Below, piece by piece: positions 45,658 through 49,240 of a stretch of 64,000 bases of DNA (its first letter is position 1; each line of letters starts with the position of its first letter). Origin of the DNA: Escherichia phage E26; the sequence record MN655998.1; one strand, written 5' to 3'. Made by a program: the position numbers and the translations under genes. The notes under the pieces were generated by a model. The model saw nothing but the letters and a program-made list of their open reading frames with translations, made no database searches and was not told the DNA's origin.

Positions 45658-46251
45658 TTACTTGTCAAATACTTTATTAATTATATCTAACAACTTTGGT
45701 TTTCTATTTTCAAATTCTAACATTTCTTCGGGAGAAATGTCAACTACTTCTGTTTTATGAAAGAAATCAGGATCTATTGCATCGGCAACAAAGTTTCTAG
45801 CTAACGCAGCGGCCTTTTCGTAATCATAAAGACCTAGATACAAAAGTTTCCCTCTATCAACCTGAATACATGCTTTATATTTACCATCTCGTTTATAAAA
45901 ACTTACTCCGATATACTCAGACGTCTTACCTTTTTGCTTTCCAACATTTCTTGAGTTTTGTTGGTCGGTCGCATCTCTCAAGTTTTCAATCCGATTATCG
46001 GTTATAACTCTGTTTACATGGTCAACACATTTTGGCATATATCCATGATGCATGAAGAAAATTATTCTATGCTCTTTGTGCAATCGACCATCAAACTTAA
46101 CTACTCTATATCCAGTTCTTGGATTTACATAGCCCGCTCTAGATCCGACTTTATGCTTTCGGTTTGTCGATATCTTGCGAATCAGCTTACCGTTATCATA
46201 TTTAAAGAGTTCATGACAACGAGCATACAATTCAGGGTCATATGTTTTCAC
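45658..46251 (-). CDS. HNH endonuclease with AP2-like DNA-binding domain (freestanding)
   Basis: 197 aa; HVNRVITDNRIENLRDATDQQNSRN (HNH_3) plus SEYIGVSFYKRDGKYKACIQ (AP2-like). Confidence 0.7.
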   Translation of the reverse strand: MKTYDPELYARCHELFKYDNGKLIRKISTNRKHKVGSRAGYVNPRTGYRVVKFDGRLHKEHRIIFFMHHGYMPKCVDHVNRVITDNRIENLRDATDQQNSRNVGKQKGKTSEYIGVSFYKRDGKYKACIQVDRGKLLYLGLYDYEKAAALARNFVADAIDPDFFHKTEVVDISPEEMLEFENRKPKLLDIINKVFDK

Positions 46252-46915
46252 CTTTTAACCTCGATATTTCTTTACACTCTTTAACTACTTTAACAAATAA
46301 TGCTCTTGCTTTTGCGGCGTCAATAACAAGTAGTTTCTTGTACGCCTTCATTTTAACACTATAAGTTTGCCAAATCAAGTCTTTGGCTACCTTGTCGTGT
46401 TCGTCGATTATATTTAGAAAGCTATCTAACAACATAAACGACTCAAACGATATAATCCGATTTTGCAGTAGTTTAAAGATACCGCTTGTTTCGGTTGCGG
46501 GATTGTATGTAATTAGCTCTTTAAGAGTAACCCCGCGTTTCTCGGAGAAGTATACCAGACTTTTAATGTCATCGTCAAATCGTGTTGCTGCATCGGTTAT
46601 CTTTCCTATGTATTCCATATAAAAGCCGTATGCGTCAACATCAGTGATTTCACCTACCCATGCATCGGTATTGGCTACCAGATTGCTTAGGAATAGGAAG
46701 TATAATTCTCTTAGATTGTACTTTTCCGCTAATTTTGCGAAATAATACTTATCTCTGCGTTTATTGAATGCGGCATCAGACAACCGCATCCTCCAATTGT
46801 ATTTTACGCAATCATAACGCCCGTTCATATGAGCTTTCATCATGCAATATAACATATACACAGATTTAGCATTAATTCGCATATCTGGATCTGGAGGAAG
46901 ACGGTTTCTGATCAT
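46238..46915 (-). CDS. 59: gp59 helicase loader
   Basis: 225 aa; NGRYDCVKYNWRMRLSDAAFNKRRDKY, LVANTDAW, FKLLQNRIISFESFMLLDSFLNIID match T4 gp59. Confidence 0.9.
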   Translation of the reverse strand: MIRNRLPPDPDMRINAKSVYMLYCMMKAHMNGRYDCVKYNWRMRLSDAAFNKRRDKYYFAKLAEKYNLRELYFLFLSNLVANTDAWVGEITDVDAYGFYMEYIGKITDAATRFDDDIKSLVYFSEKRGVTLKELITYNPATETSGIFKLLQNRIISFESFMLLDSFLNIIDEHDKVAKDLIWQTYSVKMKAYKKLLVIDAAKARALFVKVVKECKEISRLKGENI

Positions 46916-46924
46916 ACATACCCC

Positions 46925-47194
46925 TTAAATATCGAGAGTGTTGGTCGGTTCGTCGATCACTCCCTTCCTGAGCGTTCTATTTACTATACATTCTTGTGTG
47001 ATCTTGTCAATAATGGACACCGGAATATACTTCTGATAGTGACCATATTCTATAGAGTTTTCCTCTACAAACTGAGTGGTCGCTTCAAGATAAGTCAATC
47101 CCTCTTCAACAACCAGTTTTTCGATTGCAAGACCGTTTGCTGTTTTGTTCGCGGCTTTTACCGCATGTTCATTAAGCATTGAACACCCGATCAT
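46925..47194 (-). CDS. 33: late transcription co-activator gp33
   Basis: 89 aa; segment TYLEATTQFVEENSI resembles T4 gp33; synteny 59-33-dsbA. Confidence 0.65.
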   Translation of the reverse strand: MIGCSMLNEHAVKAANKTANGLAIEKLVVEEGLTYLEATTQFVEENSIEYGHYQKYIPVSIIDKITQECIVNRTLRKGVIDEPTNTLDI

Positions 47195-47447
47195 AGAGTT
47201 CTACTGCTTCATCGCGTTCTGCTTCGAAGGTTTCGCGCTGTTGCTGGTGATACAGTTTAAACAGAATGCCCCACATTTTACCATCTACGCCTAATTCTTC
47301 TTTAGCACGCTGTTTGATCTCTTTGATCTTATCGCCATATGCTTCTTGAATGGTTTTCTGATCGCTGGCTTCTTTAATCAGTTGTGCCAGGGTATTTCCG
47401 TGCACTGCTTCGTCAAATACTACTTTTTCTTTTTTCTGTTCAGTCAT
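47172..47447 (-). CDS. dsbA: dsDNA-binding late transcription protein DsbA
   Basis: 91 aa; LFKLYHQQQRETFEAE resembles T4 DsbA; synteny. Confidence 0.65.
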   Translation of the reverse strand: MTEQKKEKVVFDEAVHGNTLAQLIKEASDQKTIQEAYGDKIKEIKQRAKEELGVDGKMWGILFKLYHQQQRETFEAERDEAVELYDRVFNA

Positions 47448-47451
47448 AATA

Positions 47452-48048
47452 TTAACCCTCTTTAGTCATTAATTGAAAACCACGTTCAGCTTTTGAAATT
47501 TCGCTAGGACTTAAATCGTCACCAACATATTCTAGCATCATTTCTCGGATAATGTCAAGTGCTTTTTCATCACCTGATTTTAACTCGAACTCAAGTTCAT
47601 AGTGAGCCTCTCCCATTCTTTCGCCGACTTTACAATAATAGAAAGTGTCTTTGCACATTTCCACTATAGCACACTCAAAGTCAAGTGTCAATGACTTGCG
47701 GTATGTCATTACTTGCAATAAAGGAACGATAAGGTCGGAGTTTACGCCTAGACTATCAACATAGTGATAGAAATCATCCGTTGTTGAAAAAGTAATTTCT
47801 TCTCGGTTGAATAGTCCAGATTCACTATCACCTATTTTGACCATGATCAATGATCTGTTAACGTCAAGTCGAGCATAAATTCCTTTTCGACGCAGTGCAT
47901 GATCTTCGGTATCATAATAAAATTCGTGTTTTAATATGTTATATCGATCGACGAGATTGTACCCGTCATACATTGCTACCCACAAATCACAGATGGTTTC
48001 GACGCCAATTGGTGATTGTGCATAGTATTTTAATTCAAGTTCTTTCAT
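47452..48048 (-). CDS. CYTH-like (triphosphate tunnel metalloenzyme) protein
   Basis: 198 aa; N-terminal ELELKY (ExExK) and C-terminal HYELEFELK acidic motifs typical of CYTH domains. Confidence 0.5.
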   Translation of the reverse strand: MKELELKYYAQSPIGVETICDLWVAMYDGYNLVDRYNILKHEFYYDTEDHALRRKGIYARLDVNRSLIMVKIGDSESGLFNREEITFSTTDDFYHYVDSLGVNSDLIVPLLQVMTYRKSLTLDFECAIVEMCKDTFYYCKVGERMGEAHYELEFELKSGDEKALDIIREMMLEYVGDDLSPSEISKAERGFQLMTKEG

Positions 48049-48058
48049 ATGTCAACCC

Positions 48059-49006
48059 TTAGAACTCACCAATTTTCTGCAACATTTTAACTAACGCATT
48101 TGTTACAAAATAGTTATAAATTTTACCGCGTGGTGCTGGTTTAGATTTTTCCCATGCTAACAAAATTTCATATTCGATGTTATCAGGAATAAATTCAAAA
48201 TCAATAAGTTCGCGGTTTTCGTCAAAGCGTCGTGCTTCTTCCTCTGTCATCAAAGACTTTGGATCTTCGGCATCGAAAATTTGCTCTAACCATTTGGTTG
48301 CAATTGGTTTAGCTCGTTCACCTTCCAGCCGTGAGATAATGAAATCACTACGGCACTTGATAGAAGCTACACCGTCTTTTGCGTCACCCTTAACACATTT
48401 TACCATAAGGTCTTTGTAAGGACTACCATATTTGCATTTCTTCCATGCTTTCTGTACTGGTGCCCACTGTTTCACATTTTTGTATTTGTGCAACTGTGTG
48501 TAGTCACCATCGCCGGAGTTGATTAGCACCTGGCGACCTTCTACAGAAAACTTTTTAGTTAATACAGCGATTATATCATCTGCTTCAACTTTGTCAACCT
48601 TAATAACGTGATAAGGCATGTTCTCTTTAAACTCTTCGGTGATCTTATTGATCGCAGCAAAGATCATCTCCCAATCACGCGGATCTGCGTCTCGTTTTTC
48701 CTTACGGTTGCGTTTATAGTAAGATGCGATATCACGTCGCCAGTAACCTTTGCTTGAATCAAAGGCAAGTACCGTAATTGGGTATTGCTCTTTGAATTTT
48801 GTCATATTATAACGCATGGTGTCAAGGATAAGATGACGGATCATGCCTTCATTAATAGGATCTTCCGGTTTAAAGGTATGCGAGATAGTAGCAATCATAA
48901 GCTGCGACATATCAATCAAATGCACACCGTCCGGTAGTTTATCTTCTGGATCATCGAAGAAATCATTAAGTGTAGCGGTAGTTTTTGTAAACGGGTTATA
49001 AGTCAT
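48059..49006 (-). CDS. rnh: RNase H (5'-3' exonuclease)
   Basis: 315 aa; GYWRRD, KVDKVEADDIIAVL, SGDGDYTQLHKY, PRGKIYNYF; colinear with T4 Rnh. Confidence 0.92.
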   Translation of the reverse strand: MTYNPFTKTTATLNDFFDDPEDKLPDGVHLIDMSQLMIATISHTFKPEDPINEGMIRHLILDTMRYNMTKFKEQYPITVLAFDSSKGYWRRDIASYYKRNRKEKRDADPRDWEMIFAAINKITEEFKENMPYHVIKVDKVEADDIIAVLTKKFSVEGRQVLINSGDGDYTQLHKYKNVKQWAPVQKAWKKCKYGSPYKDLMVKCVKGDAKDGVASIKCRSDFIISRLEGERAKPIATKWLEQIFDAEDPKSLMTEEEARRFDENRELIDFEFIPDNIEYEILLAWEKSKPAPRGKIYNYFVTNALVKMLQKIGEF

Positions 49007-49008
49007 AA

Positions 49009-49194
49009 TTAAGTTCTCTCCACTCTCACAACAACATATTCACCAAACGAGTTAGATACTTCACGGTCATACCCGTACTTCTCCATAACTCGCAGAATTG
49101 CATTGTTTAATTCGGCACGGAAATAATTATAATCCTTATCAGGGATTCTGTCAACTACCCATTTTGCACCGTCTGACAAATCAAATTTAACCAT
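49009..49194 (-). CDS. small hypothetical protein
   Basis: ORF track 61 aa. Confidence 0.45.
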   Translation of the reverse strand: MVKFDLSDGAKWVVDRIPDKDYNYFRAELNNAILRVMEKYGYDREVSNSFGEYVVVRVERT

Positions 49195-49232: not shown

Positions 49233-49240
49233 TATAAATA
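49233..49240 (+). promoter_or_regulatory. T4-type late promoter TATAAATA for gene 34
   Basis: Exact TATAAATA 29 nt upstream of the gp34 ATG. Confidence 0.55.

Follow-up and report, generated by a model that had tools for sequence, protein, structure and literature searches.

The 64,000-nt stretch of Escherichia phage E26 analyzed here (sequence record MN655998.1; hereafter the window, in whose positions all coordinates are given) carries, between the genes rnh and dsbA, an open reading frame (ORF) with a CYTH domain. Our analysis suggests that its product is probably an active two-metal phosphohydrolase of the triphosphate-tunnel metalloenzyme (TTM) type, which would act on a small triphosphate compound and would resemble the CYTH half of the E. 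coli inorganic triphosphatase YgiF without the attached CHAD domain. The ORF occupies positions 47452..48048 on the minus strand, starts with ATG and specifies 198 aa plus a stop codon, with the N-terminus MKELELKYY and an internal YELEFELKSGD. A preliminary description of this DNA had proposed a CYTH protein of 198 aa in this place, pointing to the strings ELELKY near its N-terminus and EFELK near its C-terminus. The ORF lies exactly where it had been put, both strings are present (residues 3-8 and 153-157, respectively), and the assignment itself stands: the Pfam CYTH score exceeds the gathering threshold, the predicted fold is of the TTM type, and the catalytic residues are kept. The window derives from a Krischvirus (an RB49-like coliphage), the region sharing 96-98% of its nucleotides with JSE, RB49 and related phages of this genus, and the ORF is the ortholog of RB49ORF244c.

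Membership in the CYTH/TTM family, together with the fold, is as good as certain. A profile search of the protein against Pfam matched CYTH (PF01928) with 27.6 bits, above the gathering cut-off of 23.2 (E = 3.1e-6), over residues 41-190. As this range excludes the N-terminal ExExK motif, support for the latter comes instead from an alignment to 148 distant homologues. Comparison with a profile of distant CYTH homologues by hhalign gave a probability of 99.9% (E = 2e-33), and PHROG 14893, a family of unknown function, was matched over the full length (1e-129). Scans against NCBIfam and PADLOC returned no matches, implying that the protein has no curated bacterial equivalog in the former and no tie to known defense systems in the latter. 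That the ORF is more than a chance reading frame follows from the Pfam score, the full-length PHROG match, the retention of the gene in the same slot in 58 Krischvirus records, and a ratio of non-synonymous to synonymous substitution rates (dN/dS) of 0.24-0.37.

Structure prediction agreed with the profile searches. An AlphaFold2 model computed from a 24-sequence alignment reached high confidence (pLDDT 92.3, pTM 0.85) and comprised nine strand segments and a C-terminal helix (residues 186-195), predicting the closed antiparallel β-barrel tunnel with a C-terminal plug helix that typifies TTM proteins. All 50 Foldseek matches listed from the PDB were TTM-fold proteins. The top match was clearly E. 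coli YgiF (E = 6e-13, TMq 0.79, 23% identity), which was also the only PDB entry matched by sequence, whereas class IV adenylyl cyclases among the matches listed reached a TMq of only 0.47. Within the viral structures of BFVD, only the protein's own family matched well (TM 0.94 for a full-length member).

Crystallography and mutagenesis of YgiF and AtTTM3 (PMC4641920) assign Glu-4, Glu-6 and Glu-162 of YgiF to metal site 2 and Glu-160 to metal site 1, identify Arg-56 as the essential catalytic arginine, and attribute a contribution to Lys-69. The counterparts of these six residues in the phage protein are E3, E5, E155, E153, R60 and K71, in this order. They are invariant in the phage clade and nearly so in the 148 distant homologues, as are R82, E84, R117, E130, D134, S185, K186 and R189, and the catalytic residues are kept across seven divergent allele classes.

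The residues fall into four segments, all encoded on the minus strand. The ExExK motif, E3-L-E5-L-K7 (codons 3-7; 48028..48042), lies on strand β1 and is clade-invariant; by homology to YgiF, its glutamates would belong to metal site 2 and its lysine would bind phosphate. In the distant homologues the three positions are occupied by E, E and K in 144, 143 and 144 of 148 sequences. The putative substrate-binding strand, Y58-A-R60-L-D62 (codons 58-62; 47863..47877), contains the predicted catalytic arginine R60, as judged from the MAFFT and hhalign register and the motif rules of PMC8233210; arginine is found in 147/148 homologues at position 60 and in 142/148 at position 62. The ExE metal motif, E151-L-E153-F-E155-L-K157 (codons 151-157; 47578..47598), aligns to E158/E160/E162 of YgiF, such that E153 would contribute to site 1 and E155 to site 2; E occupies the three glutamate positions in 140, 147 and 148 of the 148 homologues. 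Finally, S-K-A-E-R (codons 185-189; 47482..47496) maps to the predicted plug helix and aligns to ‘SKAARGY’ in YgiF (S in 136/148, K in 148/148, R in 130/148).

The register around R60 deserves mention, for a pairwise HMMER alignment placed Tyr58 opposite YgiF Arg-56. We rejected this solution: both MAFFT, with the 148 homologues, and hhalign, at 99.9% probability, put R60 on the invariant arginine, and in their register the two-residue gap falls in a hairpin loop. With R60 so placed, two clade-specific changes emerge, namely a tyrosine at position 58, where the homologues have A, S, G or T, and an aspartate at position 62, where 142/148 have a second arginine. The canonical small-x-R-x-R pattern (small residue and both arginines in 131/148 homologues) is thereby converted to Y-x-R-x-D, and the broader form [Y/V/I]-x-R-x-[D/N] was confined to the phage clade among the best 150 representatives.

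We compared these features with the sequence discriminators compiled by Vogt et al. 2021 (PMC8233210). Class IV cyclases are marked there by HFxxxxExExK, a small residue replacing the first arginine, and ExA; thiamine triphosphatases (ThTPases) by W/YxRxR; and generic TTM triphosphatases by small-x-R-x-R combined with ExE. A class IV (CyaB-type) adenylyl or nucleotidyl cyclase, making cyclic AMP or another cyclic nucleotide during infection, would belong to the same superfamily and be of similar size (~180-200 aa); three GenBank records indeed call the gene product ‘adenylate cyclase’, and such cyclases are among the fold matches. However, the phage protein departs from the cyclase pattern on all three counts: only M-K precede E3, leaving no room for an HF motif four residues ahead of ExExK; R60 aligns with the invariant first arginine; and E153-F-E155, rather than ExA, is present in all clade members. 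The cyclase label of some GenBank records is therefore unsupported, and we regard this activity as highly improbable. The ThTPase signature is likewise incomplete, since Y58 and R60 are present and the second arginine is Asp62. As for the YgiF type, the CYTH domain is closest to that of YgiF; Pfam detected no CHAD domain, the phage protein ending at residue 198, and in place of the small-x-R-x-R strand of enzymes specific for inorganic triphosphate (PPPi) it has Y-A-R-L-D. By all testable criteria, then, the product appears to be a TTM phosphohydrolase, and it is an exact match to no characterized specificity class.

Read through these comparisons, the protein is probably an active hydrolase. 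By homology to YgiF, AtTTM3 and ThTPase, a triphosphate-metal complex would dock in a basic tunnel lined by K7, R60, K71, R82, R117, K157, K186 and R189. E153 would complete metal site 1, R60 would help the leaving group, and the terminal phosphate would be removed, yielding phosphate and a diphosphate compound. As to the substrate, an organic small triphosphate is our tentative choice, held with less than even confidence, and PPPi appears somewhat unlikely. An organic compound would thus be somewhat more likely than plain PPPi, with nucleotide-like or thiamine-triphosphate-like molecules, or a similar host metabolite or alarmone, as candidates. We lean this way because Y58 sits at the position of ThTPase Trp-53, which stacks on the thiazole ring of the substrate (PMC4641920), and because one phosphate-binding arginine has been lost.

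Several observations weigh against an active organic triphosphatase. Were the HMMER register correct after all, Tyr58 would replace the catalytic arginine and the enzyme could be catalytically impaired. The two most distant clade members lack Tyr58, P0044 having Val and P0045 Ile in its place (P0045 also has Asn at position 62), which weakens the stacking idea, and the predicted orientation of Y58 and D62 into the tunnel derives only from i ± 2 strand periodicity around R60. The closest relative, YgiF, is PPPi-specific: it does not hydrolyze ATP, GTP, ITP, pyrophosphate or polyphosphate, acts slowly on thiamine triphosphate (ThTP), and lacks cyclase activity. The gene may also be dispensable, its copy in one of the 58 isolates being frameshifted. 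Our literature searches, moreover, retrieved no biochemical data for any clade member, and on phage TTMs nothing beyond domain listings.

Three further explanations bear on the role of the protein. One of them holds that the gene is a redundant copy of host YgiF, a plain inorganic triphosphatase (PPPase) carried as a neutral passenger with no infection-specific role; its enzymatic part overlaps with the hydrolase proposed here. YgiF is the nearest relative by both sequence and fold, two GenBank records use the name inorganic triphosphatase, and the frameshifted isolate would suit a passenger. Yet an identity of only 23% argues against recent capture, the gene has stayed in its place, under purifying selection, across phages whose dsbA genes are only 70-82% identical, the substrate-strand motif is unlike that of every PPPi-specific enzyme, and E. 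coli hydrolyzes PPPi mainly via its abundant pyrophosphatase, so that an extra PPPase would have no obvious value to the phage. We consider this explanation rather unlikely. Quite improbable, to our minds, is an RNA 5'-triphosphatase resembling Cet1, which would act on triphosphorylated RNA, be it the pppApC-initiated Okazaki primers removed by the neighboring RNase H or the 5' ends of host or phage mRNAs, altering their decay. What speaks for it is that viruses classically use this fold for RNA triphosphatases of the TTM type and that the gene lies directly downstream of rnh in a replication-gene cluster; the preliminary description had likewise pointed to 5'-triphosphate RNA.

The product might also have given up catalysis altogether, serving as a ‘sponge’ for a triphosphate host signal or in protein-protein interactions, with its variable core reflecting an arms race. 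Such a binder would be consistent with the replacement of one phosphate-binding Arg by Asp and with a core that is hypervariable between near-identical phages, and non-enzymatic TTM folds do exist, such as Mediator Med18/20, which is among the fold matches. Against this, allele classes that are otherwise only ~40% identical to each other all retain the four metal-binding glutamates, the catalytic arginine and six further basic residues of the tunnel, as expected of a working active site, and the variation falls outside the catalytic positions; a non-catalytic role is accordingly very unlikely. At the bolder end, the phage proteins could form a new TTM subclass marked by Y-x-R-x-D that hydrolyzes an organic triphosphate made by the host under stress or immunity. 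On this view, the exchanged cassettes described below would bear witness to an arms race with a host sensor or inhibitor of the enzyme, and the substrate may be ThTP, adenosine thiamine triphosphate (AThTP), a signal derived from (deoxy)nucleoside triphosphates ((d)NTPs), or a 5'-triphosphorylated alarmone. This scenario is improbable as a whole.

A link to DNA modification has been raised for related proteins. Iyer et al. 2021 found CYTH triphosphatases scattered among jumbo phages and raised the possibility that in phages these enzymes remove unmodified dNTPs. A 2026 paper describes two Krischvirus phages of 99.96% identity that differ in cytosine modification through an unknown pathway, TB34 (OX001802) having canonical and SAP (OZ034687) modified cytosine. 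Both gave identical tblastn scores for the CYTH gene, indicating that presence of the gene does not track cytosine modification; the dNTP-clearing idea is neither supported nor excluded by this comparison.

We determined how widely the gene is distributed. A tblastn search returned the CYTH ORF in 58 records, all of them Krischvirus and all with the gene in this slot, whereas dsbA was found in ~1,400 phage records. In one of the 58, vB_EcoM_G2494, the gene is frameshifted at the codons for GIYA|RLD and annotated as two ORFs, reflecting either dispensability or a sequencing error, and a truncated form of 130 aa is present in databases (P0035; A0A482GBZ4). A word-indexed search of 5.8 billion clusters yielded 43 relatives, all at least 45% identical, and an exhaustive profile search of 1.84 billion representatives gave 216 matches. 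E-values in the latter dropped steeply beyond the clade (1e-101, 1e-73, 1e-30, 1e-15), and from ~1e-12 onward the tail consisted of CYTH and CYTH-CHAD proteins of generic type.

In the clade members that diverge most (P0042, P0043, P0044 and P0045), too, the gene precedes dsbA-gp33 and, on contigs that reach that far, follows rnh. The order rnh>CYTH>dsbA>33 is thus kept even in relatives only 26-43% identical in the core of the protein. Outside the clade, the nearest relatives are cellular, one from an archaeal and one from a bacterial context, with RxR in its canonical form. Of the non-phage relatives, P0046 is the nearest; it has an archaeal-looking context (Sec61-beta, RIO1) and lies directly downstream of a gene of the PRK family (uridine kinase/phosphoribulokinase), a neighborhood reminiscent of plant TTM1/2, in which a kinase and a TTM are fused. 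Relative to five Krischvirus phages, dN/dS of the CYTH gene was 0.24-0.37, as compared to 0.02-0.13 for rnh, dsbA and gp33, suggesting purifying selection that is looser than on the neighbors.

Inspecting identity along the locus revealed a mosaic. A central variable cassette of ~420 bp (codons 10-150; 47599..48021, minus strand), delimited by sliding-window identity, synonymous divergence (dS) and clustering of the core, appears to be exchanged between phage lineages. Against phages such as Skers, the window is only 45-65% identical in nucleotide sequence over codons ~10-150, as opposed to 97-100% over rnh, dsbA, gp33 and the two ends of the ORF (its first ~30 and last ~150 nt). Against Phi1 and Brandy, the cassette is 75-85% identical and the flanking rnh, dsbA and gp33 are 95-100% identical. 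In the core, phages such as Skers and the window share 41-43% amino-acid identity with saturated dS, compared with a dS of 0.02-0.2 in the flanks. Clustering sorted the cores found on near-identical Krischvirus backbones into at least four classes: the window/RB49 and Phi1 group, P0034, the Skers group, and P0042. The distances among these are about as large as those to the genes of remoter T4-like phages.

We had considered that the near-invariant C-terminal 48 residues reflect constraint on the protein alone, but dropped this explanation, the DNA there being 98-100% identical with low dS. Conservation of this end is largely due to shared backbone DNA and recombination; in P0043-P0045, the C-terminal segment is only 38-61% identical. 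The mosaic fits with old alleles persisting as islands of divergence while recombination homogenizes only the highly similar flanks, and it fits equally with diversifying pressure on a non-catalytic surface of the enzyme. A further, smaller patch of divergence lies at the 3' end of rnh (48131-48250), which is 65-78% identical in nucleotide sequence to RB49, Skers and Phi1 but 98-100% to Brandy, the rest of rnh being 95-100% identical; this suggests another intragenic recombination tract.

The gene sits within a compact block of the minus strand. Its upstream neighbor, 10 nt away, is rnh (48059..49006), encoding the T4-type RNase H, a 5'-3' exonuclease of the FEN type (Pfam RNaseH_C, 2e-37; 5_3_exonuc_N, 1e-17), and its downstream neighbor, at a distance of 4 nt, is dsbA (47172..47447), encoding the double-stranded-DNA-binding late-transcription protein (Phage_DsbA, 5e-22). 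By Pfam, the order on this strand is gp32, an HNH/AP2 homing endonuclease, gp59, gp33, dsbA, the CYTH ORF, rnh and a 61-aa ORF, with gene 34 on the opposite strand. In T4, as stated in the preliminary description, rnh and dsbA are directly adjacent, with 8 nt between them, and a Dhakavirus, a Karamvirus, Acinetobacter phage 133 and Aeromonas phage 25 likewise have a direct junction, of 7-10 nt.

Two other ORFs of this region vary between phages. One is the 61-aa ORF (49009-49194, minus strand; PHROG 3594, unknown function), which is flanked by gene 34 and rnh. RB49, Phi1, Skers and Brandy share it, and the annotations of T4, the Dhakavirus, the Karamvirus, Acinetobacter phage 133 and Aeromonas phage 25 show no such ORF there; it is a second clade-specific small gene beside rnh. 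The homing-endonuclease ORF with HNH and AP2 domains (197 aa; 45658-46251, minus strand) is inserted between gp59 and gp32, with a 14-nt overlap at the end of gp59; it occurs in the window phage and Skers, is missing from RB49, Phi1 and Brandy, and represents a mobile element of variable presence.

Expression signals were read from the sequence. Between the rnh stop codon and the CYTH start codon, TAA-GGGTTGACAT-ATG (48049..48061, minus strand) includes a Shine-Dalgarno-like AAGGG for the CYTH ORF. At the other end, AAA GAG GGT TAA TATT ATG (47445..47463, minus strand) places the Shine-Dalgarno sequence of dsbA (GAGG) in the last CYTH codons, and the C-terminal KEG is kept across the phage clade. 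Together with the 4-nt spacer, this points to tight operon packing. With spacers of 10 and 4 nt, the CYTH gene is most simply taken to be co-transcribed with rnh and dsbA, and a gene packed into an rnh-dsbA-33 transcription unit would be expressed alongside replication and late-transcription proteins.

A perfect sigma-70 consensus, TTGACA-17-TATAAT (12/12; 49126..49154, minus strand), upstream of rnh is, by consensus match only, a candidate early promoter for the rnh-CYTH-dsbA-33 unit. Between positions 46800 and 49400, 20 sigma-70-like sites were seen versus 8.6 ± 3.1 expected, 17 of them on the strand of the CYTH gene. Perfect TTGACA-N16/17-TATAAT sequences occur within coding sequence at 49154-49126 and at 48597-48570 (minus strand), and an 11/12 site, again by consensus match only, lies in the conserved 3' part of the CYTH ORF shortly upstream of dsbA (47558-47529). 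The T4-type late promoter motif TATAAATA has no match nearby on the CYTH gene strand; the sole local match (49233-49240, plus strand) lies 29 nt upstream of the start codon of gene 34 (49269), which it serves.

The CYTH domain assignment is already on record: the GenBank entry of RB49 carries the note ‘similar to P45267, P30871, HI1598, ygiF’, and Nolan et al. 2006 list ‘RB49ORF244c, CYTH domain, 0.0026’. More recent GenBank labels read ‘inorganic triphosphatase’ or ‘adenylate cyclase’ in some and ‘hypothetical protein’ in most of the 58 records. As far as can be told, three points have not been described before: the use of explicit determinants to exclude a cyclase, the Y-x-R-x-D signature, and the mosaic of cassettes. 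The main value of our analysis is therefore corrective: ‘hypothetical protein’ can become ‘CYTH/TTM family triphosphatase’, and ‘adenylate cyclase’ should be dropped. The gene is also a small and manageable example of an accessory enzyme, itself conserved, that is inserted into the otherwise highly invariant rnh|dsbA junction of T4-like phages, with an odd active-site strand and allelic cassettes. Should the substrate be a host stress or immune metabolite, a new enzyme fold would enter the phage counter-defense repertoire, as the first phage countermeasure built on the TTM fold, and a possible handle on the unexplained ThTP/AThTP or PPPi biology of E. coli would be gained. Should it be ThTP, a ThTPase-like enzyme would be known for the first time from outside the animals, to which ThTPase activity is reported to be confined.

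Among known systems, the jumbo-phage CYTH triphosphatases and the Cet1-like RNA triphosphatase domains of giant-virus and poxvirus capping enzymes share the fold and are virus-encoded. These other viral TTMs are structurally distant from the phage protein, with a TMq in BFVD of at most 0.56, and tblastn places its family in Krischvirus records only. Class IV adenylyl cyclases (CyaB; Yersinia pestis AC-IV, PDB 2fjt/3n10) have the superfamily, a similar size and the ExExK motif in common with it. The mammalian 25-kDa ThTPase (PDB 3bhd, 5a64) shares the aromatic platform but has its second arginine where the phage protein has an aspartate, and is overall less similar to the phage protein than YgiF is. 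YgiF itself (PDB 5a60/5a61; CYTH residues 1-200) is 23% identical to the phage protein, which is without the CHAD domain. The two differ in the substrate strand, G-L-R-I-R in YgiF versus Y-A-R-L-D in the phage protein, and at further tunnel-strand positions, where the latter has M69, F136, Y138 and H149.
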